Assembly (NCBI GenBank): GCA_965223905.1
Contig: CBDCXV010000002.1
Span: 384,001-448,000 of the forward strand
Reading direction: 5' to 3'
Length of the DNA: 64,000 nucleotides
Source: Candidatus Latescibacterota bacterium
Lineage (GTDB): Bacteria > Latescibacterota > UBA2968 > UBA8231
Part shown: in pieces, positions 22,334-43,942 of the stretch
Layout of the letters: each line of letters starts with the position of its first letter
How positions within the stretch are numbered: the first letter of the stretch is position 1
The notes under the pieces: model-generated
What the model saw: the letters and a program-made list of their open reading frames with translations, nothing else
What the model was told of the DNA's origin: nothing
Database searches by the model: none
Position numbers and translations under genes: made by a program

Positions 22334-22347
22334 CGGGGAGAGATTGT

Positions 22348-25221: not shown

Positions 25222-25598
25222 CAGGCAGGGTCCACGCGATACTGCCAGCCGCGAAGCACCGCGGCACGCGTCAAGTATTTCGCCTTCGTCTTGATGTCCG
25301 CGTTGGAGCAGTCGCGGAAGTCAATCACTACGTGTTCTTGAAACGGCTCCGGATCACACGTTACAGGCAGCTCCTGTTGCCAGCATTCTGCTACGGTCAA
25401 GGCCATGACGCCAACCGATGTCAGTCTCAATTGTTGGGTGTAGTGGCGATACGCCTGCTGAGCCGTCATCCGGTCTCCGTCGTAAACGGACAGTTTCTTT
25501 TGGTCTTTTGCGGTCGGCTTGAACGCCTGGGAGGTGATCCTTCCTTCTCGAATCCAACCTGGGTTCACCTGTCGGAGCAGCAAGATATCCAGTGTCAT
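25221..25598 (-). CDS. Hypothetical protein orf125 (possible ART/RES-like toxin fold)
   Basis: ATGA-coupled to upstream gene; LLRQV..AF.P..LSV...EH pattern. Confidence 0.65.
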   Translation of the reverse strand: MTLDILLLRQVNPGWIREGRITSQAFKPTAKDQKKLSVYDGDRMTAQQAYRHYTQQLRLTSVGVMALTVAECWQQELPVTCDPEPFQEHVVIDFRDCSNADIKTKAKYLTRAAVLRGWQYRVDPA

Positions 25599-26014
25599 AC
25601 ACGGCCTGCAGTCATGGCTTCGATCTGGTCGACCATCCACTTCCAGTCATCGCCATCGTCACAATTCAACGTGCGCTCGGAAGCGACGTTGGACACCATG
25701 TTGAGCGTGTGCCATTCGCCGGAACGGGTTTCGAGATTCACATCGAACGTGACCTCGTTCGGGCCGAGGGACCACTCAGCCTGAACGCCTCCCGATTCCG
25801 TTGGGTAGAGGTGCGGCAAGGGCGCCTCATCGGAAAAGTGCCGGTCGAAGGCGCCGTTCAGCCAATCGAGGCCCGCGCCTGGTGGGGCAAGCCCCTCTCC
25901 TTCGAGCCAGCCGTTTTGCAATAGTCGCAGTTCGTCGAGTTGCGCGCCGACATCCAAAGTGTCGAGAATGCTCAGATGTTCGATCGTATCGAAGCCGATA
26001 AACTGACCAGCGCG
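25595..26014 (-). pseudogene. 3' part of orf375, cut off by the transposon
   Basis: Joins 36752-37459 in frame (GIGRFS|RAGQFIG) once the element and one TSD copy are removed. Confidence 0.9.
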
Positions 26015-26022
26015 GCTGAAAC
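26015..26022 (+). repeat. 8-bp target-site duplication GCTGAAAC (left)
   Basis: Identical to 36752-36759. Confidence 0.95.
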
Positions 26023-26110
26023 GGGACCTACCCATATAACAACGCAAAAATCTCCGAAAAAGGCCCCAATCGCTGTTCTACGAGAAATAATACCGAAGGA
26101 TTTTCAGTAG
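26023..26110 (+). repeat. Left terminal inverted repeat (88 bp)
   Basis: 74/88 identical to the reverse complement of 36664-36751; first 8 bp and last 36 bp perfect. Confidence 0.92.
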
Positions 26111-26133
26111 GCGGCGGAAGGGAGTTGAGTGTC

Positions 26134-26454
26134 TTAGGCGTAACTCGGAGGCTCTATAGGAGGAATTTCAGAAACGGGTATTTCCTTGCCTGATACAGCA
26201 GAAATAAGGGTTTCTCCAGTCTCCGTAGGGCAAACAAATATATCATACCTGATCGTCATAATGTGAACTTCAGCCATGTTTTCACACGCCTTTTTGATTT
26301 CACCAAGACGATATTTTCCATCCAAAGCCGAATATAATGATTGGTACGATAAGCCGTATCCTGCCCTACGTGTCGCATCAAAGCGGGGATAGGCGGTAAG
26401 AATTTCTCGATAAATTTCGGGTAAACTATTAATGTATTTCTCACTTATAGGCAT
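26134..26454 (-). CDS. Hypothetical protein, possibly winged-helix, coupled to the TIR-domain gene
   Basis: 106-aa ORF with TAATG overlap. Confidence 0.65.
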   Translation of the reverse strand: MPISEKYINSLPEIYREILTAYPRFDATRRAGYGLSYQSLYSALDGKYRLGEIKKACENMAEVHIMTIRYDIFVCPTETGETLISAVSGKEIPVSEIPPIEPPSYA

Positions 26455-27089
26455 TAGTCTATCCTTTCCCGAAGGGGCGGGTCAGCACACATAACCCTTG
26501 AAAGAAGGTTTTTCTCTTCCCTGAGTGCAGATTTGAAAGATGGGTCGATTTGAATTTGTTCTGCTAAGGATAATCCACGAATTTCTTCCTGCCTAATGAA
26601 ACTTTTAATCTCTGAAGTTGCCCAGCTCGTTGCCTTGTCGTCTACTTCTCCAGGGGAGTAAAACTTTCCCCGTTGGATTAGCGGTCCCCATGCCGATCTA
26701 TGTAGGATACAATGTGATTGGGGAACGAAAAATAATGGGAATTGAATGTTACATAATTCTAAATCGTATTGTAAGAATCTTTTCTGAAGCAAATCGGCAT
26801 AAGCAGTTTCAATACTGTTCCATCCCCGTCCTTGTAAGAGGAATTCTTCCGTAATAAAATAAACTACATGTCGGCAAAGTACAATTCCCTCTCGAAGCGC
26901 CGAAAAGGAATCTCGACCACGGGGATAATGATGTCGGTCAAGCCACGGGAAATACTGATCCTCCTCTAATAAATTGTATACAGGTTGTATAAGAGAAGTA
27001 CGATCTTCAGCACAATGCGATAGAAATACATGGTGAGTGCATCGTGGTAAATAACGGATATTCCATGTGCCTATCATTCTCCCATCCAT
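26454..27089 (-). CDS. TIR-domain protein
   Basis: VFLSH..ED, WLD, I..C..VV.FIT..F and W...E (catalytic Glu position). Confidence 0.8.
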   Translation of the reverse strand: MDGRMIGTWNIRYLPRCTHHVFLSHCAEDRTSLIQPVYNLLEEDQYFPWLDRHHYPRGRDSFSALREGIVLCRHVVYFITEEFLLQGRGWNSIETAYADLLQKRFLQYDLELCNIQFPLFFVPQSHCILHRSAWGPLIQRGKFYSPGEVDDKATSWATSEIKSFIRQEEIRGLSLAEQIQIDPSFKSALREEKNLLSRVMCADPPLRERID

Positions 27090-27105
27090 CCTTTCGTAAT
27101 TCAGG

Positions 27106-27132
27106 TGTGGTATAACACTATGTTATACCACA
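27106..27132. promoter_or_regulatory. Palindrome TGTGGTATAACA-cta-TGTTATACCACA (extended -10-like on both strands)
   Basis: 12-bp arms; near-identical copy at 29811-29834. Confidence 0.6.
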
Positions 27133-27165
27133 TCCCATACATGGTAGTTAATATACCCTTTTGTG

Positions 27166-27891
27166 TCATTGCTTCTCTCCCTTTTCAGTAAGACTGTTTT
27201 TCATATCGATTATTTCCTGTCTCCGGTCATTACGGACCGCAGGAATAACATATATCTCATGCAAAATTTCTTTGATAGCAGATAATATGATTCTAAGATA
27301 ATCCGCCTTCCATCCATCGAGTGCATTTTCATGCACCTTGGAACTGGTTATTTCATGGATCGATAAAAGAGTGTCGAAGTAGGTAGAATCTACTTCCTTC
27401 CGTATCGACTTTAGTGACTTGATTTTCTCCTCATAGGAAGTGCCGGTTGCCTTTTCCTTTTTCCCAAGTTCGTAAATGAGTTTCCGCGCACAAGCTGATC
27501 CACCAGTCAAATGATTGCCATTCAGGCAGCTTTCTGCCTCAGTAAGTAGTTCTCTTAGGACACGAGGAATCCGGTTGTCTAAAGCGAAGAATGACGTTGG
27601 AACGGAATGGAATATGGCATTATCTATTAATCCATTGAACTTTTTGTTGAATTCATCACGATACGGTAAATTATTATATATCTCATATACATCATAATAT
27701 GATAAATGCATTGATATTTTTTCGCAAGAACTGCATTTAATAAAAAATGCTTGACATTCTCTCTTATTATCCCAGTTAAACGTAACTATATTGTGCGTTC
27801 TATATCTCACATTTTTTCTGTTACAGAAAGGACAATTGTAAGTCTCTTCGTCTACGAAATATCGCTCATCTAAGTGTGATTGATCGGACAT
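27166..27891 (-). CDS. Zn-ribbon + DUF4145 (HEPN-like) protein
   Basis: CPFC/CSSC; EA..C.....G..C.RK; S..VH motif. Confidence 0.65.
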   Translation of the reverse strand: MSDQSHLDERYFVDEETYNCPFCNRKNVRYRTHNIVTFNWDNKRECQAFFIKCSSCEKISMHLSYYDVYEIYNNLPYRDEFNKKFNGLIDNAIFHSVPTSFFALDNRIPRVLRELLTEAESCLNGNHLTGGSACARKLIYELGKKEKATGTSYEEKIKSLKSIRKEVDSTYFDTLLSIHEITSSKVHENALDGWKADYLRIILSAIKEILHEIYVIPAVRNDRRQEIIDMKNSLTEKGEKQ

Positions 27892-28053
27892 AGTTCCCCC
27901 TTACAGGACCTATAGTTCATTGGCAGTGTGTTCATTTGAAGCGTCATCATGACGTCCCTCCTAATATAACCTCTCCCTAAGTATTCGTACAAACCTTAGC
28001 TGCTCACCTTCTCCAGGAATTCTTCCCTATACTTCGCTTTCATGTTCTGTCTC

Positions 28054-28644
28054 CTAAGGAATTCTTAGGACCATACCAGTGCCCGTGAACATATCATCAT
28101 TCAGTCCGAATCCGGCCCGAATGTCCCACTGGAGATTTTCCGCCAGCAGCCAAGTGAGCCCCCCGTTGATATAGTGCTCAGTCTCCCGATACCACTCGGC
28201 ATACAGACCAATAGGGGCGCTAACCTTCATTCCTACCGCGATTGATTGAGCCCACCCCGTTCCCCGATTCACCTGTGAACTGCCTGCCAAGGATACCCTG
28301 TCGGTAAGGTCCCAACTGTAGACGAGATTCACTCCTGGTGAAGTGGGCAGGGTTATCTGTGGGATTACAGCGATGCCCGGAGTAAGGGCCAGCTTCATAC
28401 CCAGGTAGATATCCTCTGTCCTGCCAAGTCGGAGCTCCAACCAATCGGCCAGCACCCCGGCGCGAAGAAGGGGTTCTCCGAGGGAATGAGCCCAATCCCC
28501 GTCATGTGTGGCGGTGTATCCAAGCTCAATCTGTAGGATATTTCTACCGACAGCTTCTGCTGCTTCCGTGAAGTCCGGGCGATCTCCTACAAGCGGCTGT
28601 GCATACACTCCCCCTGCTGCTAATATCAGTAGTAATATCTTCAT
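28054..28644 (-). CDS. Putative outer-membrane beta-barrel (MetA-pathway/'transporter'-like family)
   Basis: Signal peptide, DRPDFTE motif, alternating beta-strand pattern. Confidence 0.6.
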   Translation of the reverse strand: MKILLLILAAGGVYAQPLVGDRPDFTEAAEAVGRNILQIELGYTATHDGDWAHSLGEPLLRAGVLADWLELRLGRTEDIYLGMKLALTPGIAVIPQITLPTSPGVNLVYSWDLTDRVSLAGSSQVNRGTGWAQSIAVGMKVSAPIGLYAEWYRETEHYINGGLTWLLAENLQWDIRAGFGLNDDMFTGTGMVLRIP

Positions 28645-28762
28645 CTTCTCCCTTTCAAAAGTATAACATATTCATCTACACTATTTATGCAACAGTCGCC
28701 CCTATTTATGGACTAATGTCACACTTCTGCTATCTTACTGATTTTCAGGAGGATAACAAGGA

Positions 28763-28969
28763 ATGGATATATATAACGATTACACCCCTCGTAACCGCTT
28801 GCGGGATGGATGGCAGGAGGATCTATTCAGCAGATTCGGAAACGCCGGTTTTCCCAGGGAGAACGATGTCGTCAAGGTTGCCCCCAGAACGCTTGAAGCT
28901 TTCCTTCTCGAATACGACAAGCGTGTTAAGGTGCTCCTCGATGAGCGAAAGAGAATTCGCAATCTCTAA
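28763..28969 (+). CDS. Small protein with TPRNRLxDGWQEDL motif (copy A)
   Basis: RBS AGGAGG; motif conserved through synonymous changes relative to 36441-36626. Confidence 0.55.
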   Translation: MDIYNDYTPRNRLRDGWQEDLFSRFGNAGFPRENDVVKVAPRTLEAFLLEYDKRVKVLLDERKRIRNL

Positions 28970-29107
28970 GGATACCTCTAACTGTCGAGCTTGCACCCAG
29001 TAAGCAGCTTCCTTTGGACCACCTTTGACCTTTTGAGAGTGGTTTCTAAGTGCTTCTATAGCTTTCCGGTCAAGCTTCTTATTTTTTTCTTCTCTGCTTC
29101 GTGCCAT
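28823..29107 (-). CDS. Hypothetical protein (94 aa)
   Basis: Strong RBS AAGGAGGT upstream. Confidence 0.6.
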   Translation of the reverse strand: MARSREEKNKKLDRKAIEALRNHSQKVKGGPKEAAYWVQARQLEVSLEIANSLSLIEEHLNTLVVFEKESFKRSGGNLDDIVLPGKTGVSESAE

Positions 29108-29195
29108 CCTATTACCTCCTTTGAGGGGTATAATAGGGAAGGAAAATCAGAAAAGCAAGGTGATATAACGTAGCGTTACACCACCCTACCCTTCC

Positions 29196-29732
29196 TTACG
29201 GACAGATATCGTCGTTTCCGTCCTGGACAACTGTCGGGGTATCAGCAGCTCCCGATTCTGCATGCGGAACCCAGCCGGTGAATCCAGGAGTAGCGGCCAG
29301 ACGGACATCCCGCACTTCCCCAGGGGCAAGGTCAGCCCGAGGGGTAGGTCCAAGCTCGATACCGTTGCTAAGGTGCACTTCAACACGAACGTCACGTATG
29401 ACGGCATCAGTGACGTTCTCAACGGTCCCGACAAATGCCTCTTCGTCAGGGTCCCAAATCATGAACAGATAGACACCGTTACGAAGACCATCATATCCCT
29501 CGTCAAGGGCAAGCTCCAGTCCGCTTTCCTCTCCGACGCCTGGCCCGCCTTCGCCACCTTCGCCGGAGTGCTCCCCACCCTCCCCACCTTCTCCACCTTC
29601 ACCGCCTTCTCCGGAATGCTCTCCTTCCTGGAGGATCTTACCAGAATCGCAAAGGTCGTGCGTCGTTGACGACATTGGCTGCTCTGAACATCCCCAAATC
29701 GTCATAAGTGCAACTGCGAGAATGACATACAT
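29196..29732 (-). CDS. Lipoprotein with Gly/Glu/His low-complexity repeat and Ig-like domain
   Basis: Lipobox IWGC; EGGEGGEGGEHSGEGGE; G.VEN...VRVEV...L.PGE. Confidence 0.65.
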   Translation of the reverse strand: MYVILAVALMTIWGCSEQPMSSTTHDLCDSGKILQEGEHSGEGGEGGEGGEGGEHSGEGGEGGPGVGEESGLELALDEGYDGLRNGVYLFMIWDPDEEAFVGTVENVTDAVIRDVRVEVHLSNGIELGPTPRADLAPGEVRDVRLAATPGFTGWVPHAESGAADTPTVVQDGNDDICP

Positions 29733-29810
29733 GCCAATTCTCCTCTGGTTATGGGGGTTTACAGCATATGACTATTCAGAACTGGACAGGTTCCCTCCTT
29801 TCGTAATTAG

Positions 29811-29834
29811 TGTGGTATAACATGTTATACCACA
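29811..29834. promoter_or_regulatory. Perfect 24-bp palindrome TGTGGTATAACATGTTATACCACA between divergent lipoprotein and transposase genes
   Basis: Seen directly; shares the flank CCTTTCGTAATT with the 27106 copy. Confidence 0.6.
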
Positions 29835-29932
29835 TAACCCGCCTAATTAGCTGAAATTCCGCGAAACTACCCCCGACGCTGGTATAACGCAGTGAAGAAG
29901 GAAAGTTTCTCTCCTAAACCAAGGGGGAAAAT

Positions 29933-30967
29933 ATGGGAGAAAAGCGGTTTTTGGGTAAGTGGAGCGGACGTGGAAAGAAGCGCCGGCAGAAGCGTATTAC
30001 CCTGTTGGAGATAGTGCATATGTTCCCCGATGCCCGCACGGCGGAAAGCTGGTTTGAAGCGTTGCGTTGGGGTGACGGTATGTATTGTCCTCGTTGCGGC
30101 TGTGATGCTGACAGTATATCCGAGTGTCCGCGCCGGCGACCGCAGCCGTATTGGTGTAAGGATTGCCGAAGGCGTTTCAGTGTCCGCACCGGAACGACGT
30201 TAGAAGCGTCTAAGGTCCCACTGCACAAGTGGGCAATAGCGATCTACCTGCACGTTACCAGCACGAAAGGTATCAGCAGTGCCCGCCTTTGCCGGGATCT
30301 TGGGGTAAGGCAGCATACGGCTTGGTTCATGTTGCATCGCATACGGGAAGCATGGAGCGATCAGCCATCGCTACGCAGCAGTGAGGCAGAGATTGACGAG
30401 GCATACTTTGGCGGCAAGGAGAAGAATAAGCATAAGGATAGGCGCCTGGGGCGCCGCTGGATGGATGGCAAGCGTATCGCCGTTGGCATCAAGGACCGCA
30501 AGACTGGCAAGATACGTGCAGAGGTATTACCGCCAGGCTCGGACATTCATGACAACATGCCCCCCAGTATGGACAGGTCCGACGACAGCAGCCTACGGGC
30601 CTTTGTCCGGGACAACCTCCGTATCCGGGGAATCCTCTACAGCGACGGCGCCGAAGCGTATAAGGACTTCCCCTGGCTCGGTAAGCATGTTGCCGTTAGA
30701 CACAGCAAGGGAGAGCATGCCAAACCAAGACGCAAGGGGCGCAAGTTAGTTGCCCACACTAACGGCATAGAATCGTTTTGGGCATCCGTCAAGCGAGCCT
30801 ATCACGGCACCTTCCACCAGATATCCCCGAAGCACCTACAGCGATACCTGGATGAGTTTTGCGCCCGGCACAATATCCGCGATAAGGATACGATAGAGCA
30901 GATGCGGGAGTGTGTGCGGCAGATGTATAACAAGCGGTTGACGTATAAGGATCTTGTTGGCAAGTAA
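29933..30967 (+). CDS. tnpA: IS1595-family (ISXO2-like) DDE transposase 1
   Basis: RW..G..CP.C Zn ribbon, FSVRTGT, EIDEAY, YSDG, HTNGIESFW, KHLQRYL.EF. Confidence 0.95.
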   Translation: MGEKRFLGKWSGRGKKRRQKRITLLEIVHMFPDARTAESWFEALRWGDGMYCPRCGCDADSISECPRRRPQPYWCKDCRRRFSVRTGTTLEASKVPLHKWAIAIYLHVTSTKGISSARLCRDLGVRQHTAWFMLHRIREAWSDQPSLRSSEAEIDEAYFGGKEKNKHKDRRLGRRWMDGKRIAVGIKDRKTGKIRAEVLPPGSDIHDNMPPSMDRSDDSSLRAFVRDNLRIRGILYSDGAEAYKDFPWLGKHVAVRHSKGEHAKPRRKGRKLVAHTNGIESFWASVKRAYHGTFHQISPKHLQRYLDEFCARHNIRDKDTIEQMRECVRQMYNKRLTYKDLVGK

Positions 30968-31017
30968 TTGTTGGTGAACACCAACAATGTTGTGGAGGTA
31001 GATGTTCGTCTTAGTCA

Positions 31018-31050
31018 GATACCCCCGGTGCTTTCCTGGCCGGGGGTATC
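31018..31050. terminator. Hairpin between convergent genes (possible bidirectional terminator)
   Basis: GATACCCCCGG / CCGGGGGTATC 11-bp stem. Confidence 0.6.
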
Positions 31051-31072
31051 ATTATGTCACGCTTGGAGTGGG

Positions 31073-31732
31073 TTAGGTGGAAGGTGGCGAGGCTGGAGCT
31101 TTGTTCGCTTTCTTTCGATTGTCTTCAACGAGCTTGGGTAACGTAAAACTATACGTTAAAAACACTTCCGTAAATACTTGTAACTGTCTTGTAGTATCTT
31201 CGTTGGCATCTTCGTTGTGAGCGGCTTCATTGCCATCAAGTCTAATAATATCAGCCCAATCTTTCATTGATGGTGTTATCATATGATTTTTGGATAAGTC
31301 ATCAATCCTGTCGATTAGCCTCGATTTCTTTGACAATGAACTATCTATCTCTACAGTAGCACGGTCGAGAACTTTACGAAACATCATAGCCGCGCTTGTA
31401 TAGCTTTTCCTTTTGAGATTATCTACAGCTTCTACATAATTATTGGCAATTGGTTTAGGGGTAGAATTTGGAGCTTCTACAGATTCAAACTGTGGATACA
31501 TTCCTATAATTGTGAATTTTTCATCGGTAGGATTTCCAGAGCACTTCATAGGTTTTTTATCGTCATCCAATATACGTAAACAAACCACAGTTATATTTCT
31601 GCAATTCCTACACTGGAAAAAAGAATTCCATCGATAGTCATAATATGAAGAATGAGTAAGACTTTCGCCCACACATGTATGTCCAAGATTAATCCCTTTG
31701 CAATGGGGACAATTTAATACCATTTCTGCCAT
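31073..31732 (-). CDS. Zn-ribbon + DUF4145 (HEPN-like) protein
   Basis: CPHC/CRNC; AA.M.RK.L; IRLDGNEAAH (R-x-N-x-H). Confidence 0.8.
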   Translation of the reverse strand: MAEMVLNCPHCKGINLGHTCVGESLTHSSYYDYRWNSFFQCRNCRNITVVCLRILDDDKKPMKCSGNPTDEKFTIIGMYPQFESVEAPNSTPKPIANNYVEAVDNLKRKSYTSAAMMFRKVLDRATVEIDSSLSKKSRLIDRIDDLSKNHMITPSMKDWADIIRLDGNEAAHNEDANEDTTRQLQVFTEVFLTYSFTLPKLVEDNRKKANKAPASPPST

Positions 31733-31762
31733 AATTTATTCTCTCAGAATTAAAAGGGCGGC

Positions 31763-32017
31763 CTATTCCCCAGAGGGAACTGTCTTAGTTGTATGAATAC
31801 TTCGATCCTCGATATGTCGATGAACCTTCTTATCCAGGTTTTTAATCTGCTTACTGATATTCTTGTGAGCCTTTCTGGATTCTTTCTTTGTGCGGCGCAA
31901 GTCTTCTTTCAAGTTATTGCTCACACTTCTGAGATACAAAGCTATCAATCCACCAGTTATTGCACTGGTAAAAGTAATATATCCAGGAACTACCAAGTCA
32001 CTAAGTGCTATTGCCAT
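31763..32017 (-). CDS. Small single-TM coiled-coil protein
   Basis: RBS GGAAGG; one TM followed by a basic helical tail. Confidence 0.5.
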   Translation of the reverse strand: MAIALSDLVVPGYITFTSAITGGLIALYLRSVSNNLKEDLRRTKKESRKAHKNISKQIKNLDKKVHRHIEDRSIHTTKTVPSGE

Positions 32018-32132
32018 AAGTTACCTTCCCCTTTATTGAGAAGGGCGGGCAACTGGTTCCCGAGACCCGAGAGCCGATCCACAAAAGGAGCCCTGATTAA
32101 TCCAGCGCCCGCCCTAAACGAAAGGAACACAA

Positions 32133-32246
32133 ATGCCTTCTGAGTTATATCAACCTTCACCCGAGCTTGCAGTAATAGTCGGTGATATGCCGCTGTCCTG
32201 GGTAAAGATCATGGAGATAGTAATGCGATCACATCAAGGAGAATGA
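32133..32246 (+). CDS. 37-aa mini-ORF resembling the start of a SWIB domain
   Basis: RBS AAAGGA; YQPSPELAVIVGDMPL. Confidence 0.35.
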   Translation: MPSELYQPSPELAVIVGDMPLSWVKIMEIVMRSHQGE

Positions 32247-32341
32247 CCTTGACAGATTGCCTAATGTTGTCACGGATGCCGCTCTACGGTCCCTTACTGG
32301 CGACCGAGAACAGCTATCCGCGAATGAGCTAACCAGGGTCA

Positions 32342-32902
32342 TTAAAGCCCACGTGACCCCAACGGGAAGAAAGGTGTAGACTGCTTAACCCTTCCCCAAG
32401 TTGTTGTTCTTACTGCGGTTGTCGCACTTCTGGTAAGGACTATCTCCCCTGTGTCGGTGGATAACGACAATTCGTCACCTTCCAGGATATACCCGAACGT
32501 CGCCGGTCCGAACTCGGGACCTTCCCCGATAAATTCATTTGCCAGCTCTACGACAACAGAATCACTCGGAACGTCGAGTCCGGCATCCTCGAACTGCTTC
32601 CTGACGAACGTCTCTACGTCGAGCCCGTCTACCAGTATCTCAGGTTCGGAAGTCGGTAGAAGGGACAAGATGTTGCCCCCGGAAATACTATCCTCTCCGG
32701 TGCTCCAGGTTCCCTCGACAACGGTTTCCAGGGTGGCGGAAAAGTCATCGGCAGAGACTTCCGCCGTAATCGTCAAGGTGAATGCCTGTCCGTCCTTGAC
32801 GGATAGGTCGAAGGCTTCACCGGTGCTCATGGTGCCGCTCCAATCTCCCTGTAGCTGAGCACTGGCGATAGCTGGTAACAAAAATAAAAACAAGTACTTC
32901 AT
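32342..32902 (-). CDS. Secreted acidic protein with C-terminal TAVRTTTWGRVK motif
   Basis: Signal peptide MKYLFLFLLPAIASA; RBS GGAG. Confidence 0.7.
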   Translation of the reverse strand: MKYLFLFLLPAIASAQLQGDWSGTMSTGEAFDLSVKDGQAFTLTITAEVSADDFSATLETVVEGTWSTGEDSISGGNILSLLPTSEPEILVDGLDVETFVRKQFEDAGLDVPSDSVVVELANEFIGEGPEFGPATFGYILEGDELSLSTDTGEIVLTRSATTAVRTTTWGRVKQSTPFFPLGSRGL

Positions 32903-33033
32903 TGTGGTTCTCCAATAAGGCATCCTGTGTGCTTCAGATACCCGGTTCTGAGGATAGGGGTGTCAACGGGGCAGGGGGGCGAATTCGGCTCCCCTGTCAC
33001 AAACGATATAACCTCGCGAAAGGAGGTTGTCAA

Positions 33034-33225
33034 ATGGATCAGGAACAGTTGAAGTGTGCCCGTATCGCCGTCGGCATGAAGCAGTGGGAGTTAGGCGTTG
33101 CCCTTGGCGTCAGCGAGGCGGAGATATGCCTGTGGGAGAAGGGAAAACGGAAGATGCCGGAACGGTATCTAACCCTGATGGGAGCGATCATACACCACCT
33201 GGAACACGGGTTGATTCTGTCGTAA
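33034..33225 (+). CDS. XRE/Cro-like HTH regulator
   Basis: RBS AAGGAGG; LK.AR...GM.Q.ELG..LGVS...I..WE.G. Confidence 0.85.
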   Translation: MDQEQLKCARIAVGMKQWELGVALGVSEAEICLWEKGKRKMPERYLTLMGAIIHHLEHGLILS

Positions 33226-33298
33226 CCTGTTGATTTTACGGTATTTGTGGTATAACCGTATAAAATTATTGCGCCGCTGCCAGGGATACCATATTATT

Positions 33299-33570
33299 GG
33301 CTCGTCAGCTTCGCTTGCGTAGGAACCTCCGTTAGTCGGGTTCCTGCCTGAATACAATAGCCATCATAACCGACCACGGGGTAGCGCACCTATGGTCTGG
33401 CGAATAGGGTAGACCTTCCCGCTCTCTACGCGGCGGAGTTGACAGAGCCCGGCACCAACGGTTGTCGGAAATCTGTCAACTTCACATAGTCCGGGCCGTA
33501 GTCGTCATCATCGTAATCAGGTTCCTTCAGCAGAATCTGGTCATCCTCTCTCTGGCGGCTACGGCCTTTT
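33299..33570 (+). ncRNA. Candidate structured RNA/leader with alternative pairings
   Basis: Long G:U-containing stems identified by eye (see findings). Confidence 0.5.
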
Positions 33571-33598
33571 CTATGCCTTGCGGGAAGGGTCCGAACAA

Positions 33599-34114
33599 AT
33601 GGCTATCTACGTCTTGCTGTTACTGCTTACAGGATGTTCCAGCTATGTCACCAAGGAAGAACTCCCGGAACTAATCGGATCGTATCTCAAATCACATAGC
33701 GGGAGAGTCACTGCACATACTCTGTATGCGAGAGAAATACGCCTTATGCCTTTTCCTCAAAATTATTTGTATGAGGATGGGGAGAGTCCGGGAGGAGTAA
33801 TATTAAAAGTCAATAATGAAGGATTTACGCAGTTTCTTATAAGCTCTCCAGGAGGAAGGATATATCTGGATGCAGATGATAAGGGAGGAACTTTACAGGT
33901 ATCCAATACATCCGAAAATGGGGGAGGAGCTACAATAATGAGCCAAGAAAATTCGTCATTCATATTAATTCGTCCAGGGAAGGATCTGGATAGAAATTCA
34001 ATTGCGTTAAGCTCTGAGAAGAATATTAAATCTAAGTTCTTTGGAACTCGAATTTTCGCAAACGATCATAGGGGAAGAGCTAAGACGATATATAGATCAC
34101 GGCCAATTGATTAG
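33599..34114 (+). CDS. Putative lipoprotein
   Basis: MAIYVLLLLLTGC lipobox. Confidence 0.65.
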   Translation: MAIYVLLLLLTGCSSYVTKEELPELIGSYLKSHSGRVTAHTLYAREIRLMPFPQNYLYEDGESPGGVILKVNNEGFTQFLISSPGGRIYLDADDKGGTLQVSNTSENGGGATIMSQENSSFILIRPGKDLDRNSIALSSEKNIKSKFFGTRIFANDHRGRAKTIYRSRPID

Positions 34115-34129
34115 AAAGAGGGGGAGAAA

Positions 34130-34438
34130 ATGAAGCCAACTGAACAGGCAATCCTACGCAAATACAAAACCGAGCTAATCGAAGAAGTAGGAAATACTAA
34201 AAACTCTACCCACCTAAGAACACTATCCGCAAGAATGTTCTTGGAAATTGATGCCTTAGATCATCCTAATGAGATGTCTGTATTAATTAAGTCAATTAAC
34301 AGACACACTCGGGAAACTCCTACTCACCTACGTTCCATCCAGACTACGCTTGAGTCTCTTGAGTGTAGCCTTGCGGAACTCGTGAGCTTTTTGAAATCTG
34401 ATAAGAAAGTCAGTCCAAAGCCTGTCTCTACCACATAA
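34130..34438 (+). CDS. Hypothetical protein (102 aa)
   Basis: RBS GGAG; helical composition. Confidence 0.6.
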   Translation: MKPTEQAILRKYKTELIEEVGNTKNSTHLRTLSARMFLEIDALDHPNEMSVLIKSINRHTRETPTHLRSIQTTLESLECSLAELVSFLKSDKKVSPKPVSTT

Positions 34439-34553
34439 AAAACCCTGCAATCTCGGGGGCGGTTTCTTTCTCCGCTCGTAGTTCTGCATTCTCTTTCTGC
34501 AAGCGGACAATCTCTTGCCGCATCTTCTTTGCAGCTTCTTTGTGCAAGTTCAT
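34428..34553 (-). CDS. Small coiled-coil protein (41 aa)
   Basis: MNLHKEAAKKMRQEIVRLQKENAELRAEK. Confidence 0.4.
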   Translation of the reverse strand: MNLHKEAAKKMRQEIVRLQKENAELRAEKETAPEIAGFFMW

Positions 34554-34626
34554 TGTTTCATCTTTTCCGCTCCACAAGTAGGAACGTCCTACGCCGGAGC
34601 ATTTACGCAGGCAAGGAGAATGTCCT

Positions 34627-34701
34627 ATGCCTACCTGGGTGGTTATCGTGCTTGAGGTGGCCCTGGAGCTAATCCAGATCATCTTGAAGTACGGAGCCTA
34701 A
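34627..34701 (+). CDS. 24-aa hydrophobic peptide (type I toxin-like)
   Basis: MPTWVVIVLEVALELIQIILKYGA; RBS AAGGAG 8 nt upstream; terminator directly downstream. Confidence 0.55.
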   Translation: MPTWVVIVLEVALELIQIILKYGA

Positions 34702-34706
34702 CGGCT

Positions 34707-34752
34707 AAGGGACAGTGAAGCCAGGGATATGAGTTTCGCTGTCTCTTTTTTT
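34707..34752 (+). terminator. Rho-independent terminator
   Basis: AGGGACAGTGAAGC / GTTTCGCTGTCTCT stem followed by a T-run. Confidence 0.65.
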
Positions 34753-34867
34753 AGCTTAGATGTTGAAGAACAGCAACAACCTAACTGCCCGCTGTTGAAT
34801 ACCACTATATAGTAGTATAAAGGGGGCAACAATTTGACAAGTGTCGCCGGACAGCGTAGTACTTAGA

Positions 34868-35054
34868 GAGACGGAGCGGAACAGACGGGATTTCGGGACC
34901 GGATTCCGATCCCTGGCTACAATATCAGGTTGTAGCGTACCAGCCCTCAACGGGCGTTGAGAGCGTGAAAGCTTCGTTTTCTCGGTTATCAACCATACGG
35001 CAAGCCGTATCGGAACGAGAAAAGTCGCTTTAGCCGCCTGCCCGCTACCGTCTC
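34868..35054 (+). ncRNA. Candidate 187-nt multi-branched RNA upstream of transposase 2
   Basis: Closing stem GAGACGG/CCGTCTC with at least 6 internal helices; TTGACA at 34834. Confidence 0.6.
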
Positions 35055-35068
35055 AAATAAAGGGTAAA

Positions 35069-36010
35069 ATGTTCTTAAATAAATGGAATAATCTGGTAAA
35101 ATCGCAGCCGGAAATACTCGGTCCTGCGGCACTGAACAGTGTTTCTATCCGGGAATTTTTCAGCCGCTTCCCCGACAAAACCACATCGGAACAATGGTTT
35201 GAACGCTTGCGTTGGGGGGAGGATATCCTATGTCCTCACTGTGACGCTATCCCGTCTGAATGTCCGCAACGGCGACCACAACCGTATTGGTGTGGTGTCT
35301 GTCGGCGGCGGTTCTCTGTGCGAACTGGCACCCTGATTGAGGGGTCTCCTGTGTCCTTTCAGGATTGGGCATTTGCCTTATACCTCCATGTAGTATCGCC
35401 GATTAACGCAGTCCAGTTACAGGGTTATCTCGGGATAAAGCAAGCAACTACTTGGTTCATGCTGCACCGTCTACGTTGTGCCTGGCCAGACCCGGAACCA
35501 CTTCGCGCGAAGGAAGCGGAGGTTGATGAAACCTATTTCGGCAGTGGCCGGGGAACGGCGGGCAAGACTACCGTTATCGGCATGAAGGACCGACATACAA
35601 AACACGTCGCGGCGGAAGTAATATCCAGTCTCGACAAGGCTGCCGTGCAGACATTTATCCGGCGCCATCTTCACAGTCAGGGACGGCTGTTGAGTGATGG
35701 CTTCCGCAGCTACACACGCTTCCGCTGGGTAAGCCTGCATGAGACAGTAGAACACCAAGACGGGGAGTATGTCCGGGGAGACGTGCATACCAACGGCATG
35801 GAATCATTCTGGTCGGGTCTGAAGCGAGCATACTACGGCGTTTATCACCATTTTCCCGAGAAGCATTTTCAACTCTACCTGAATGAGATAGTCGGCAGGC
35901 ACAACCTGCGTGACCGGGACACGACGGAGAGGATGAAGTATCTTGGGGAGAGGTTGGTTAGAGGGGGAGAAGGCGGTTTGATGGGACACGATTCGTGCCC
36001 CTTGTCCTGA
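35069..36010 (+). CDS. tnpA: IS1595-family DDE transposase 2
   Basis: RWG...CPHC, FSVRTGT, EVDETY, LSDG, HTNGMESFW. Confidence 0.93.
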   Translation: MFLNKWNNLVKSQPEILGPAALNSVSIREFFSRFPDKTTSEQWFERLRWGEDILCPHCDAIPSECPQRRPQPYWCGVCRRRFSVRTGTLIEGSPVSFQDWAFALYLHVVSPINAVQLQGYLGIKQATTWFMLHRLRCAWPDPEPLRAKEAEVDETYFGSGRGTAGKTTVIGMKDRHTKHVAAEVISSLDKAAVQTFIRRHLHSQGRLLSDGFRSYTRFRWVSLHETVEHQDGEYVRGDVHTNGMESFWSGLKRAYYGVYHHFPEKHFQLYLNEIVGRHNLRDRDTTERMKYLGERLVRGGEGGLMGHDSCPLS

Positions 36011-36111
36011 CGTAACTCAGGTCGTCCCTACCCTTCATCCGGGTAGGAAAGATTCGCGCCCTGTCTTGTGTAATGGCTTGAATCTTTGGCACCTTCTCCC
36101 CCTCCTAATCC

Positions 36112-36140
36112 TTGACATACATCGACGGGTGGCGTACAGT
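36112..36140 (+). promoter_or_regulatory. Sigma70-type promoter TTGACA-17-TACAGT
   Basis: Consensus -35, 17-bp spacer; predicted +1 near 36147. Confidence 0.65.
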
Positions 36141-36146
36141 GGAGGC

Positions 36147-36197
36147 GATCTGGATTAGCTCCAGAGCCACCTCAAGCACAATGACCACCCAGGTAGG
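36147..36197 (+). repeat. 51-bp inverted copy of the peptide coding sequence 34630-34680
   Basis: 48/51 identical to the reverse complement. Confidence 0.9.
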
Positions 36198-36209
36198 AAA
36201 GGGAACCCG

Positions 36210-36581
36210 ATGACCGGATCAACTTTGGAAACAGTACGGAAAGAACTACTGAAACTATTGGAGAGGCAGAGTAAGGACGATAATAATCGGCTTCGGGCTG
36301 CGGAATTGCTTATCAAGATGGAAAAAGACAGAAATATCTACGAAAAGCTTGAAACTATAAAGGGAGTCGATGCGGCAACTGTATCCACTATATTGGCAAT
36401 TGTGATGTCTATTGACCCTGACAAAGTCCAGGAGATTGTCTCATTCCTTAAAGAGAAGGTCGAAAGCCCTCCTAAACAACTCGGTACGACTGTCTCTATC
36501 GACGCCTTCATCTATAGAACAAAAAGCATCATCGATTCTTTTGAAATTATCGGAGGCCCCGTCAATAAGGCTACTCCGTAA
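36210..36581 (+). CDS. Hypothetical protein (123 aa)
   Basis: ORF downstream of the promoter, purine-rich RBS. Confidence 0.6.
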   Translation: MTGSTLETVRKELLKLLERQSKDDNNRLRAAELLIKMEKDRNIYEKLETIKGVDAATVSTILAIVMSIDPDKVQEIVSFLKEKVESPPKQLGTTVSIDAFIYRTKSIIDSFEIIGGPVNKATP

Positions 36582-36626
36582 ATCTTCCTGCCATCCATCC
36601 TGTAACCTGTTTCGTGGTGTGTCCAT
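36441..36626 (-). CDS. Small protein with TPRNRLxDGWQEDL motif (copy B)
   Basis: RBS AAGGAG; reads inward from the right TIR. Confidence 0.55.
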   Translation of the reverse strand: MDTPRNRLQDGWQEDLRSSLIDGASDNFKRIDDAFCSIDEGVDRDSRTELFRRAFDLLFKE

Positions 36627-36663
36627 GTTCGCTCCTTTTTGTATTATCCAGAGAATCAGTGCT

Positions 36664-36751
36664 CTACTGAAAATCCTTCGGTATTATTTCTCGTAGAACG
36701 TCGATTGAGCCCCTTTTCGGGGAAAATTGCGCTGTTAAGCGGATAGGTCCC
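36664..36751 (-). repeat. Right terminal inverted repeat (88 bp)
   Basis: Ends ...TAGGTCCC; matches 26023-26110. Confidence 0.92.
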
Positions 36752-37459
36752 GCTGAAACGACCGATGCCCTGGAACAGCGCGCGAATCCCGTTCTGGTAT
36801 CCATTGAATGCTTCGAGGATGGTGTCGAGGTGCTGGGACGCAATCGGGGCTTTGACCTTGCTGCCGTCTAGCAACTGAATCTCGAAGCTCCTGTCGTCCT
36901 GGTCAGCCTCGGGCACCGCACCTCGTATCGAAACTTCCTCGGTCAGTTCCTTCACTTTGGGCGACGCAAGGACCAGCCGTCGCCGGACGTCCCTGGTGAG
37001 CCTCGCCGTGGTTTTGTGGTCCGGACCATCGAATAAAACCGCTTCACCCTCCTTCAGGCTTCGCCCCAGCTTGTCGAAGTAGCCCAGCGTCCCCTCCGGC
37101 AGATGCGGCTCGATGGGACGTTCGTCTTCCGCTGCACTGATAGCTTGGATGATCGCGTCGCGCGCGTAACCGGAATAGGTCTGGCTGACTGCCGGGAGCA
37201 AGGTCGGCGGTTCCGAGGTAATTCGGATTTCCAGGGATGCACTGCCGGGATTAATCGCCGCGAGCCTCAATTGGATGTTCTTCGTGAAGCCACGGGGTGA
37301 CCGCTGACGGTTCGGGTGATCCGTGAGGAATTTGGACTTGGCCACTTCAACGACCATTTCTTCCAGCACCGCGACATCTTTCAAGAATTCCAGCGGGACG
37401 GAGTGGTCGTCGTAGCGCGCACCGACGAGGTGCAGGCGCATGAAAGGTTCCGTGCTCAT
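36752..37459 (-). pseudogene. 5' part of orf375 (includes the right TSD copy at 36752-36759)
   Basis: ATGA-coupled to hsdM; continues in frame at 26014. Confidence 0.9.
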
Positions 37460-39441
37460 GAAGTCACCTCCCGCAGCAATCGCATGATCTTTTCCTCCGC
37501 CTTCTTCAGATCCGCGTCGATCTCCTCCAGCGGTCGTGGCGGTGTGTACTTGTAGAAGTGGCGATTGAAGTTGATCTCGTAGCCGACCTTGTCCTTGCCG
37601 CGGTCCATCCAGGCGTCGGGAACGTGGGGGGCTACCTCCCGTTTGAAGTAGGCGTCGACGTTGTCTTTAAGCGGCACGTTCTCGAAGTCGCGCAGCTTGG
37701 TGTCGGGCTCGCAGCCTTTCTCCCGGCCATCCTTCCTTACCTGCTCGGCCTGCGGATCCTTCTCGGTGAAGACATCCCGGAAGAGATTCTGTTCCGCCTT
37801 CTTCCAGCGCGATTGACGCTTATGCAGAAGAGTCGCAATTCTCCCCCATGCCGCATTCCAGTCGTGCTCCGGCTCTCGCCCCAACTCTTTGTCGATGGCC
37901 TGCACATCGTCGAGCAGGTACGGGCAGGCGTCGAGGAAGCGGGCCTTGTCTTCTATAGTCATCCGGTAGCGCAAGCGCAGGGGTTGCTCCACGGTCACGC
38001 GTGTGTAGCCGAAGTCGTCGTTGTCGAAGACCCTGGAGCGATCTCCGTCCTCAAAGCGGCCGTATAGCCGCACGATCTCCTCGATCTGCTCTGCGGCGAT
38101 GTGGCGGCGCTTGTCGCCAAGGCTGCGCATGTTGTCTTCACCCCCGCCCGCGGTCCACAAGTCGCGGGCGTCGAGGAGCTGAATCTTTCCCATCCTGCGC
38201 TCCTCCTTGCGGTTGGTGACGATCCAGACGTAGGTGCCGATGCCGGTGTTGTAGAACATCTGCTCCGGCAGGGCGATGATGGCTTCGAGCCAGTCGTTCT
38301 CGATGATCCACTTGCGAATGTCGCTCTCGCCGGAGCCCGCGCCTCCGGTGAAGAGCGGCGAGCCGCTGAAAACGATAGCGAGCCGCGAGCCGTGTTTGTG
38401 TTCCCTCGGCCGCACGGGTTCCCGCTTGTGCCACATGTGCTGCAGGAAGAGCAGCGAGCCGTCGTTCACGCGCGGAAGCCCTGCCCCGAAACGGCCCTCT
38501 AATCCGAGCTTGTCGTGTTCGCGCTGGACCTCATTCTTCTGCCTCTTCCAGTCCACGCCGAAGGGGGGATTGGTGAGGAAGTAGTCGAAGGTCTCGCCCT
38601 CGAACCGGTCCTCGGTCAAGCTGTCGCCGAAGCGGATGTTGTCGCCGCCGCCGTTGTGGTCGACCTGCTTCATCAGCATGTCGGAGGCCGCGGTGGCGAA
38701 GGCGCGGTTGTTGTAGTCCTGCCCATAGACGTAGAGCCGTGCCGAACCGTGGTGGTCTCGCAAGTCGTTCTGCGCTCCGGCCAACATGCCGCCCGTTCCG
38801 CATGCAGGGTCGAGGAGCTTGCGCACAGTGCCGGGTGTGGCGAGCAGTTGGTCGTCGTGAATGAAGAGGATGCTCACCATCAACCGGATGACCTCGCGCG
38901 GCGTGAAGTGGTCGCCCGCGGTCTCGTTCGCCAGCTCATTGAAGCGGCGGATGAGATTCTCGAAGAGAAGTCCCATTTGCTCGTTCCGGACCCTGCCGGG
39001 GTGCAGGTCCACATCGCAGAACTTCGAGGCGACGAGGTACAGGATATTGGCTTCGCGCATCTTCTCGATCTCCGTCTCGAACTCGAAGAACTCGAAGATG
39101 TCGCGCACGTTGGCCGAGAAGCCCTGGATATAGCTGACGAGGTGCTGGGCGATGTTGTCCGGATCGCCTTTGAGCTTCTGGAAATCGAGGTCTGAGTGGT
39201 TGTGGAAGCGCTGGCCCGCGGCCCTGTTCAGCCTGGCGTCGAGCGCGTCGCCGTCGAGTCTGCCGCGCCAGCGATCATATTCGGACTGGACCTTCGGCTT
39301 GCTCGGCGCCAGCACGCAGTCGAACCGCCGCAACACGGTCATGGGCAGCATGACGCGCTCGTACTGCGGCGGGCGGTAGGGACCGCGCAGCAGGTCGGCG
39401 ATCTGCCAGATCAGGTTGGCGAAGTAGCTGTGGTCAGGCAT
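37456..39441 (-). CDS. hsdM: Type I R-M methyltransferase subunit
   Basis: GDHFTPREV, DPACGTGGML, NPPFG, FYNTGI.TY. Confidence 0.95.
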   Translation of the reverse strand: MPDHSYFANLIWQIADLLRGPYRPPQYERVMLPMTVLRRFDCVLAPSKPKVQSEYDRWRGRLDGDALDARLNRAAGQRFHNHSDLDFQKLKGDPDNIAQHLVSYIQGFSANVRDIFEFFEFETEIEKMREANILYLVASKFCDVDLHPGRVRNEQMGLLFENLIRRFNELANETAGDHFTPREVIRLMVSILFIHDDQLLATPGTVRKLLDPACGTGGMLAGAQNDLRDHHGSARLYVYGQDYNNRAFATAASDMLMKQVDHNGGGDNIRFGDSLTEDRFEGETFDYFLTNPPFGVDWKRQKNEVQREHDKLGLEGRFGAGLPRVNDGSLLFLQHMWHKREPVRPREHKHGSRLAIVFSGSPLFTGGAGSGESDIRKWIIENDWLEAIIALPEQMFYNTGIGTYVWIVTNRKEERRMGKIQLLDARDLWTAGGGEDNMRSLGDKRRHIAAEQIEEIVRLYGRFEDGDRSRVFDNDDFGYTRVTVEQPLRLRYRMTIEDKARFLDACPYLLDDVQAIDKELGREPEHDWNAAWGRIATLLHKRQSRWKKAEQNLFRDVFTEKDPQAEQVRKDGREKGCEPDTKLRDFENVPLKDNVDAYFKREVAPHVPDAWMDRGKDKVGYEINFNRHFYKYTPPRPLEEIDADLKKAEEKIMRLLREVTS

Positions 39442-39539
39442 GTCATCACCTTCGCGGGCTTACCGCGTCAGGGATCCCAACGAAAAACCGTCAACACTAG
39501 AAATTTACGAAACACCCTAAGCCGCGCCTCCGCCCGCCG

Positions 39540-43927: not shown

Positions 43928-43942
43928 AAAGGTAGGGCAGAA

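Follow-up and report, generated by a model that had tools for sequence, protein, structure and literature searches.

A probable 10.7-kb transporter insertion sequence of the IS1595 family lies within a candidate phage-defence gene of a Candidatus Latescibacterota restriction-modification operon

Passenger-carrying members of the IS1595 family of insertion sequences (IS) were reportedly described by Siguier, Gagnevin and Chandler in 2009 as transporter IS (tIS) elements. Members of the family catalogued in the ISfinder family table reach an upper size of about 7.9 kb, the ends of the ISNwi1 subgroup have the consensus ggnnatTAT, and, to our knowledge, the transposition mechanism of IS1595 elements has been little studied. 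PMC8101967 describes the family as having 8-bp target duplications and a single transposase gene, whose product combines a DDE domain with a zinc finger at the N-terminus, and it reports the N-terminal zinc ribbon (Zn_ribbon_IS1595) in all IS1595 groups except IS1016. In the IS1595 and IS66 families, elements that are built like an IS but also carry passenger genes are termed tIS (TnCentral preprint; PMC11891212), and ISNha5 is given as an IS1595 member whose passenger is a regulator (PMC11891212). Here, we describe a 10,729-bp element at positions 26023-36751 of a 64,000-nt stretch (the window) of contig CBDCXV010000002.1 from a Candidatus Latescibacterota bacterium. All coordinates are positions in this window unless another contig or stretch is named. 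The element is very probably one transposition unit, a non-composite passenger-carrying IS (tIS) of the IS1595 family. An earlier note on this DNA had called it an IS1595 cargo transposon without flanking IS copies, and the family matches of its transposases and the repeats at its ends agreed with that description. Thus, the element is of a known kind; the novelty lies in this particular member, with its size, pair of transposases, and cargo.

The boundaries of the element were located from its junctions. The left junction reads GCTGAAAC at 26015-26022 followed by GGGACCTA from 26023, and the right junction reads TAGGTCCC up to 36751 followed by GCTGAAAC at 36752-36759. Both copies of GCTGAAAC form an 8-bp target-site duplication, which was recovered in a duplication scan as well as in the junction sequences. 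Inside the duplication are 88-nt terminal inverted repeats, the left one at 26023-26110 (plus strand, tip GGGACCTAC) and the right one at 36664-36751 (minus strand, tip GGGACCTAT). Repeat finding placed the inverted arms at 26022-26110 and 36664-36752 (89 nt, 84% identity). When the arms were compared from their tips, 74 of the 88 positions were identical, with a perfect 36-nt run at positions 53-88 (26075-26110 in the left arm). This inner 36-mer had two occurrences in the window at up to three mismatches (0.00 expected from 100 shuffles), and the terminal repeat was found only at these two places in the organism's own genome (7.92 Mb, 11 contigs). Both tips start with GGGACCTA; that is, they are GG-tipped, as are IS1595 family ends. 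When 25000-37800 was scanned for inverted ends flanked by exact 8-bp duplications, the outer pair was returned with 4 of 16 tip mismatches. Two further duplication pairs in that scan, 26776-27834 and 32619-33422, had 5 to 6 of 16 tip mismatches and were judged to be due to chance.

In silico excision of the element plus one copy of the duplication yielded a single open 375-aa frame on the minus strand. The repeat length, the count of identical positions, the perfect inner 36 nucleotides, the 8-bp duplication, and the restored frame had all been put forward in the earlier note, and all of them were confirmed here. The GC content of the element was 0.477, compared with 0.607 in the flanks and 0.63 to 0.65 in the contigs of the genome. 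The element is therefore foreign to its host genome (GC of 0.48 versus 0.64).

The site without the element was found in other DNA. When the N-terminal fragment of the interrupted gene was used as a protein query, a match was found in 5 of 41 genomes (the own genome, G000, included), and the match in G002, a genome of the same genus, had 91% protein identity. We compared 18 kb of G002 (stretch L026) with the window and found that the operon was alignable throughout at 92 to 97%. Specifically, window positions 25110-26023 corresponded to L026 10320-11233 (92.0%), and window positions 36753-40072 corresponded to L026 11226-14543 (94.5%). The two flank alignments overlapped in G002 by exactly 8 bp, corresponding to the one copy of the target sequence there (present as ACTGAAAC), and L026 keeps an intact 375-aa open reading frame (ORF) at this empty site. 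Similar results were observed when contigs of four public runs (three studies) were aligned to window positions 24000-39000. A joint from 26014 to 36752, which skips 10,737 bp, was present in contigs of all four runs. Hence, an empty allele, which the earlier note had proposed looking for, was found both in G002 and in the public runs. The empty-site contigs were about 87 to 90% identical to the window flanks; because of this divergence of about 10 to 13%, they represent related strains and not excision products of this strain. Run X1 was the one run that also had the filled allele, which matched the window without differences over 26081-29520 and 29505-36693, and it contained 0.94 of the sampled words of 25600-26500; no RNA data set was listed among the runs with this sequence. 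This run may be the source sample and hence may not be independent.

The filled allele in run X1 bears on the idea that there was no transposon insertion at all and that the region is an assembly chimera, a site-specific recombinase island, or a compound transposon. The X1 contig pieces listed break near both repeats, as an assembly artifact might; however, the breaks fall at the perfect 36-nt repeat, whose length exceeds that of the 31-letter words used, and a chimera would not yield a perfect 8-bp direct repeat around 88-nt inverted repeats plus an exactly restored 375-aa frame. In the case of a recombinase island, protein-family searches of the element ORFs found no integrase or recombinase family, and no tRNA genes were found in 20000-45000. 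Rfam had no matches in 25500-37300 at E ≤ 0.1. In the case of a compound transposon, no IS copies repeated at the element ends were found among the window repeats or in the own genome. Since the ends are repeats and not IS copies, the element is not a compound transposon. It shares with compound transposons several kilobases of cargo and more than one transposase gene, but its transposases are internal, in the same orientation, and 43% identical to each other, and its ends are 88-nt repeats. Taken together, we consider this whole group of alternatives extremely improbable.

The element is located in a type I restriction-modification operon on the minus strand, in which the gene order is hsdM, PDC-M32A (split), PDC-M32B, hsdS, a 317-aa gene, a PIN gene, and hsdR. 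The hsdM, hsdS, and hsdR genes are all present, and all frames of the operon apart from the split PDC-M32A gene are open. Upstream of the insertion is hsdM (37456-39441; Pfam N6_Mtase E 2.4e-50 and HsdM_N E 5e-23). Downstream of the insertion are hsdS (23780-25105; Pfam Methylase_S E 5.8e-11) and hsdR (18654-22196; Pfam HSDR_N, SWI2_SNF2, T1R_D3-like, and Peptidase_S24; PADLOC REase_I E 2.2e-36). As the earlier note had stated, the insertion is clean and parts hsdM from hsdS and hsdR; specifically, it puts 10.7 kb between hsdM and the PDC-M32B, hsdS, 317-aa, PIN, and hsdR genes. The two leftmost cargo genes are co-directional with the operon, and no terminator-like site was found between them and the left end. 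For these reasons, read-through from the leftmost cargo genes into hsdS and hsdR is possible.

The N-terminal 236 codons of the interrupted gene are at 36752-37459, and this ORF continues for 31 codons into the element. The C-terminal part is at 25595-26022, as indicated by the restored frame and the alignment to the congener, and the downstream partner gene (139 aa) is at 25221-25640; all three features are on the minus strand. Pfam searches with the fragments of the interrupted gene and with the intact G002 orthologue returned nothing, even at E ≤ 1. In PADLOC searches, the intact G002 orthologues of the interrupted gene and of its neighbour (L026:10431-10850, also supported by synteny) matched PDC-M32A (E 1.2e-133) and PDC-M32B (E 1.1e-52), respectively, over their full lengths. 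PDC-M32 is listed in PMC12429752 as a computational phage defence candidate, under "hypothetical defense systems." Based on these matches, the interrupted gene is the PDC-M32A half of a candidate phage-defence pair located between hsdM and hsdS; the orthologous pair is intact in G002, and in the window, the A gene is split by the element. The earlier note had taken the truncated gene for a putative antitoxin gene. This identification was rejected, as the product is 375 aa, has no Pfam family match, and matches PDC-M32A instead. The PIN gene is 2.8 kb away, beyond hsdS.

The defence locus differed between the congeners in other ways. In G002, an Abi_C gene (L026:6907-7617) is located between the PIN gene and hsdR, and the window differs at this place (22239-22344). 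The target-recognition part of hsdS (window 24599-25110) could not be aligned between the window and G002. The HsdR protein has a C-terminal Peptidase_S24 (LexA/UmuD-like) domain at residues 1041-1171, a fusion that seemed unusual. Outside the operon, about 2 kb at 42594-44595 show a drop in GC content and are absent from G002; no inverted repeats of note were found in this segment, and its ORFs had no Pfam match. The segment may be another insertion, or it may reflect a deletion in G002.

The element contains two IS1595-family transposase genes, both on the plus strand. Tnp1 (344 aa, 29933-30967) matched Pfam DDE_Tnp_IS1595 (E 6.7e-24) and NCBIfam transpos_IS1595 (E 3.3e-46) with its motifs intact, and Tnp2 (313 aa, 35069-36010), which has a long branch, matched Pfam DDE_Tnp_IS1595 (E 1.6e-27). 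In both proteins, the zinc-ribbon cysteines (CP..C...C..C) align with those of the IS1595 family, and the blocks DE..Y.GG, D....Y, and H.N..E..W...KR are conserved. Both sequences depart from the family alignment, Tnp1 by two insertions and Tnp2 by a single deletion of 15 residues.

Tnp2 is bracketed by an inverted repeat of its own, with arms at 34630-34680 and 36147-36197 (51 nt at 94%, or 58 nt at 90%), and together they make up a unit of about 1.6 kb. This arrangement suggested a nested IS and, therefore, that Tnp1 is the likelier partner of the outer ends. No target duplication was found beside the inner repeat, and in silico removal of the Tnp2 unit, which was aimed at frame restoration, gave no information. 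Both arms of the inner repeat encode the same peptide, IWISSRATSST(I/M)TTQVG, and three differences between the arms read as synonymous. In addition, the reading frame of the right copy ends where a 123-aa ORF begins, with the stop and start codons overlapping as ATGA. The inner repeats may thus have arisen by duplication of the start of a gene and may not be IS ends. BLAST bit scores were higher for Tnp1 than for Tnp2 against the transposases of two related elements in the same genome, E6 (243 versus 176) and E4 (214 versus 189), which are described below. From these comparisons, it seemed that the enzyme cognate to the outer ends is Tnp1, an assignment that we favor with some reservation. 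That it is Tnp2 is unlikely, and we rate the action of a paralogue in trans about as unlikely.

The own genome encodes many relatives of these enzymes. The Tnp1 query gave 15 matches there, eight of them near full length (Tnp1 and Tnp2 included), and each match was checked for flanking inverted repeats and exact duplications. Element E3 (C10:935721-942719; 6,999 bp; GC of 0.47) has a perfect 45-nt repeat and the duplication GTCGTAGT. Element E4 (C11:1961238-1965811; 4,574 bp; GC of 0.55) has a 93-nt repeat and the duplication ATCGAGGC. Element E6 (C2:~484079-492285; 8.2 kb; GC of 0.505) has E4-like ends and no duplication. The tips of the window element matched the E4 and E6 tips at 15 to 18 of 26 positions in register. 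Beyond the common GGGAnnTAT (that is, at positions 10-26), 9 to 12 of 17 positions matched; the values of the two best pairs were reached by none of 2000 shuffles and those of the other three pairs by 0.5 to 1.7%. Similarity to the tips of more distant relatives was limited to the first nine bases. The motif TGGTATAAY, which is also seen inside the window element, marks the E4 and E6 ends. In a maximum-likelihood tree of 20 transposases, the seven near-full-length paralogues of the own genome, which include Tnp1, Tnp2, and the E3, E4, and E6 transposases, formed one clade with 100/100 support. The clade was internally unresolved, and Tnp2 had the longest branch. The earlier note had proposed a search for siblings by terminal repeat. 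This part stood in that homologous ends were found in the own genome (E4 and E6), and no copy of the exact ends was found. With homologous ends and an empty allele both at hand, the outcomes that the note had named as refuting its reading did not occur.

The cargo of the siblings was mostly unassigned; a SIR2_2 protein is encoded in E6, and fragments of other transposases are present in E4 and E6. Apart from one XRE gene in E3, this cargo was unrelated to that of the window element. The neighbours of the siblings also differ from those of the window element in that they are metabolic, ISL3, and efflux genes and not defence genes. Specifically, E3, E4, and E6 adjoin oxidoreductase, PhyH/ISL3, and AcrB-type genes. 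Targeting of defence islands was considered and rejected, as the siblings lie outside defence loci and thus gave no sign of it. A further IS1595-rich region of the own genome (C11:~1183-1209 kb) harbours multiple XRE genes as well as copies of an 81-aa gene in inverted orientation. Its 1186-1197 kb part was tried as a sibling and rejected because its repeats correspond to the 3' end of the 81-aa gene, copied in inverted orientation, and are not family-type ends. The tips of the Tnp2 unit were not significantly similar to these repeats (score of 10; shuffles averaged 7.2 and reached at most 13).

Relatives of Tnp1 were also found beyond this genome, at 18 loci from other phyla in genome contigs (at most 53% identity) and at 30 loci in metagenome contigs (at most 48% identity). 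Nine of the 12 other-phyla loci that were checked for ends were GG-tipped with exact 8-bp duplications; they ranged from 1.8 to 9.35 kb, and eight of the nine measured 2.65 to 9.35 kb. The largest (L027, 9.3 kb, with an 8-bp duplication) was in a Caldilineaceae (Chloroflexota) genome, and one 4.2-kb cargo element was present as two copies in one genome with different duplications. Because both the same-genome siblings and the relatives in other phyla carry several kilobases, cargo carriage is ordinary in this transposase clade, and the window element is the largest member of the clade found here. Like E3, E4, E6, and L027, it combines a transposase of this clade or family with GG-tipped repeats (25 to 93 nt in this group), low GC content, and several kilobases of cargo; 8-bp duplications were found in E3, E4, and L027. 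The earlier note had presented the size and the repeat length as exceptional. They are less so, given relatives of 4.6 to 8.2 kb with 45- to 93-nt repeats in the same genome, the 9.3-kb Chloroflexota element, and the fact that tIS had already been named.

With respect to described tIS elements of the IS1595 family, the window element has in common terminal inverted repeats, an 8-bp duplication, a zinc-ribbon DDE transposase, no flanking IS copies, and passengers that include a regulator. It differs in having two transposase genes, 88-nt repeats, and a cargo that consists mainly of defence-type genes and genes for exported proteins, and at 10.7 kb, it exceeds the catalogue maximum of about 7.9 kb. 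The tips GGGACCTAC and GGGACCTAT, together with the relatives' tips GGGAATTAT, GGAACTTAT, and GGCAATTAT, fit the ISNwi1 consensus, and the 8-bp duplication fits as well; the public annotation of the related transposases is at the family level only ("IS1595 family transposase"), so membership in the ISNwi1 subgroup is only a possibility. The literature searched yielded no paper about IS1595 elements that carry defence cargo or that occur in Planctomycetota.

Several observations weigh against reading the element as a single unit moved by its own enzyme. The two terminal arms are mismatched at 14 of 88 positions, and among the X1 contig pieces listed, which end at 26014/26081 and 36693/36752, none bridges a junction. 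No second copy of the element or of its ends was found in the own genome. When the element DNA was compared with the genomes of 41 relatives (the own genome included), 11 matched through internal segments only, and the ends matched in the own genome alone. Exact-pattern scans, which miss diverged copies, gave no hits for the 36-mer or, separately, for a degenerate tip pattern in genome contigs, and none for a 26-mer of the 36-mer in metagenome contigs. Mobility therefore rests on one insertion event. With regard to the enzymes, the Pfam zinc-ribbon scores of Tnp1 (22.2) and Tnp2 (16.4) are below the gathering cut-off of 25.4, and the element has two transposase genes compared with the single gene described for the family in PMC8101967. 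Neither gene adjoins an element end, unlike in simple relatives. Finally, the tree left unsettled whether Tnp1 or Tnp2 is closer to the E4 and E6 transposases, and only the BLAST scores favored Tnp1.

The position of the transposase genes would also be expected if the element were non-autonomous, with Tnp1 and Tnp2 as passengers or decaying genes and with a different IS1595 paralogue of the host acting in trans on the ends. At least six further near-full-length IS1595 transposase copies are present in the host, and the ends of the element resemble those of E4 and E6 even though the transposases of these elements are only 38 to 46% identical to Tnp1 and Tnp2. The insertions in Tnp1 and the deletion in Tnp2 point the same way. 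On the other hand, the Tnp1 and Tnp2 frames are open and retain every conserved block, the E4 transposase is a poor donor because its N-terminus is degenerate, and no paralogue was linked to ends nearer than those of E4 and E6. We consider it unlikely that the element is non-autonomous.

The element is mosaic. Its GC content ranged from 0.37 to 0.57 in 500-bp windows, and some of its segments were found in other contexts. A module at 28043-28656 that contains an outer-membrane protein gene was 97% identical at the nucleotide level to L087:15340-15952, which is part of a low-GC island of G002, and the flanks were unrelated. The identity ran from a hairpin just after the stop codon to about 15 nt before the start codon. 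At the boundaries of the G002 island (L087 ~7120-17200), inverted ends or a duplication were not found. Run X3, from another study, contained the cargo segment 31027-33621 at near identity and low depth, joined to different sequence. The same run contained a 93%-identical copy of the Tnp2 region with a different right-hand context. Such mosaic features are compatible with an exchange of gene-sized modules between elements.

A predicted promoter and 5'-untranslated-region cassette of about 45 nt, with TGTGGTATAAC and GTTATACCACA, was also duplicated in the element (27085-27132 and 29792-29834; also 33246-33256). This cassette precedes the gene for a TIR-domain protein and a lipoprotein gene, and it faces Tnp1. 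It includes a 27-bp palindrome, TGTGGTATAAC-N5-GTTATACCACA, upstream of the TIR-domain gene (27106-27132), which is a putative extended -10-like promoter or operator, and a palindrome search found a perfect 24-bp palindrome, TGTGGTATAACATGTTATACCACA, between the lipoprotein gene and Tnp1 (29811-29834). Five of the seven copies of the exact 11-mer TGTGGTATAAC in the 7.9-Mb genome were inside the element; this enrichment is partly compositional because a low GC content by itself favors the occurrence of AT-rich motifs. In a promoter and terminator scan, the counts were not above those of shuffles.

The mosaic GC content, the inverted repeats of Tnp2, the module shared with G002, the X3 joint, and the duplicated cassette are all consistent with a different history of the cargo. 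In that history, a smaller IS1595 element with the ends, one transposase, and a few genes was inserted, much of the cargo came later in situ by nesting or recombination, and the 10.7-kb unit never moved as a whole. This account overlaps with the one that we prefer and differs in when the cargo arrived. However, no internal end pair had a credible target duplication, including the Tnp2 repeat; the perfect duplications around relatives of 7.0 to 9.3 kb show that units of this order are moved whole; and one genome contains two copies of the 4.2-kb cargo element. Later arrival of much of the cargo is thus possible, and we lean against it. The same features could also be viewed as signs of a lineage of single-transposase "cargo platforms," in which promoter-less modules composed of a ribosome binding site, an ORF, and a hairpin would be swapped and plugged behind a shared TGTGGTATAAC promoter/operator cassette, along with recurrent XRE and 81-aa genes. 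The observations behind this proposal are the one sharp-edged 97% module, the one duplicated cassette, the five of seven motif copies, and the recurring XRE and 81-aa genes, and we regard it as speculative and rather improbable. If it were true, such platforms would be a cassette-like way to assemble mobile sets of defence and envelope genes, distinct from integrons and Tn7-like elements.

For the single-unit tIS that we favor, the following sequence of events can be proposed. An IS1595-type zinc-ribbon DDE transposase, most likely Tnp1, or else Tnp2 or a paralogue in trans, would bind both 88-nt terminal repeats and join the element to target DNA cut with an 8-bp stagger at GCTGAAAC. The flanking duplication would arise when the stagger was repaired. 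The target was inside PDC-M32A, the first gene of the candidate pair, and the insertion split this gene. Present-day mobility of the element, the choice of its cognate transposase, the functions suggested for its cargo genes, and an effect on restriction are inferences.

The 17 genes of the element consist of the two transposase genes, 14 candidate passenger ORFs, and one frameshifted gene. The earlier note had counted about 17 cargo ORFs, which is near the total number of genes; the passengers are fewer. Based on sequence matches, the cargo includes defence-type genes, namely, a gene for a RAZR/PD-T7-4-like zinc-finger HEPN protein, a gene for a second and weaker candidate of this type, and a gene for a TIR-domain protein with a small partner. 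PD-T7-4 is now called RAZR and is described as a zinc-finger HEPN RNase that is activated by phage ring proteins and has the catalytic residues R146 and H154 (PMC13017515). The RAZR/PD-T7-4-like protein of the element (219 aa, 31073-31732, minus strand) matched Pfam DUF4145 (E 1.1e-13) and, over residues 5-184, PADLOC PD-T7-4 (E 4.8e-9). It resembles RAZR in having an N-terminal Cys4 zinc ribbon (C8, C11, C41, and C44), a C-terminal DUF4145 (HEPN) domain, and an R164-x7-H motif like R146/H154 of RAZR; it differs in that it is a distant relative, as the PADLOC match indicates, and is known here by its sequence. The second candidate (241 aa, 27166-27891, minus strand) has a Cys-rich N-terminus and a helical C-terminus and is weakly RAZR/PD-T7-4-like (PADLOC PD-T7-4 E 0.03; Lar zinc ribbon E 0.008, below the cut-off). 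In this protein, H-x7-H replaces R-x7-H, and a homologue with 54% amino acid identity was found in one class-level relative. The similarity between the 219-aa and 241-aa proteins was not significant (E 0.098).

The TIR-domain protein (211 aa, 26454-27089, minus strand) matched Pfam TIR_2 (E 1.3e-8) and, weakly, PADLOC ThsB/PDC-S66. It had 165 homologues at E ≤ 0.001, and the few that are named come from Planctomycetota. The gene for its putative partner (106 aa, 26134-26454, minus strand) had no Pfam match. Atlas feature leads (scores of 0.87 to 0.94) pointed to helix-turn-helix regulators, and a winged-helix-like fold is a lead only. The two genes are kept as a pair in three other genomes at 60 to 74% amino acid identity.

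Four cargo proteins are predicted to be exported or located in the envelope, with signal peptides and lipoboxes identified by eye from the translations. These are a 196-aa outer-membrane-type protein with a signal peptide (28054-28644, minus strand; Pfam Phenol_MetA_deg E 4.2e-12), which is encoded by the discrete module described above; a 178-aa putative lipoprotein with a lipobox and GGEGGE repeats (29196-29732, minus strand; NCBIfam FxLYD_dom E 6e-4, below the cut-off); a second 178-aa putative lipoprotein with the lipobox LTGC (33578-34114, plus strand; no family match); and a 193-aa secreted protein with a signal peptide (32342-32923, minus strand). The last has a paralogue with 77% nucleotide identity at C10:119724-120113 and a partial match with 63% amino acid identity in the congener. 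A candidate regulator of 63 aa with an XRE-type helix-turn-helix (33034-33225, plus strand) had PADLOC and NCBIfam matches at E 8.5e-5 to 1e-3. It was 86% identical at the amino acid level to an ORF of E3 and had several copies in both congeners; it is thus a recurrent gene of such elements. The frameshifted small gene (32133-32378, plus strand) has intact copies of 81 to 82 aa in the G002 island and at C11:~1196.5 kb of the own genome.

The remaining passengers are hypothetical ORFs of 94 aa (28823-29107, minus strand; no family match), 84 aa (31763-32017, minus strand; DUF6626 E 0.0026, below the cut-off), 102 aa (34130-34438, plus strand), 84 aa (34428-34682, minus strand), and 123 aa (36210-36581, plus strand). 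The first 20 codons of the second 84-aa ORF are inside the inner inverted repeat, and this ORF had weak similarity to ORFs of E3 and of the C11 region. The 123-aa ORF overlaps a 61-aa minus-strand ORF (36441-36626), and either could be real. Seven small cargo ORFs were called solely because they are open. A 44-nt inverted repeat (28782-28825 and 36579-36622, 80%) spans the starts of two small ORFs, from the upstream region through the seventh codon, and both ORFs begin with MDGR(R/K)IY; the TIR-domain gene begins with MDGRMI.

The results provide a rare case of a multi-gene transposon whose limits are fixed to the base from four lines of evidence: inverted ends with a duplication, an exactly restored frame, a sister genome in which the site is empty, and contigs from independent samples that also have the empty site. 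For specialists, the advance is incremental, because tIS elements of the IS1595 family have already been described. The clean ends should be useful for studying IS1595 transposition. The element indicates that the load of a simple one-enzyme IS1595 element can exceed 10 kb, including what are predicted to be a RAZR-like abortive-infection gene and a TIR-domain gene, and that such an element can disrupt one defence candidate (PDC-M32A) while bringing others to the same locus. It is thus a concrete example of how IS-type elements may turn over the contents of defence islands.

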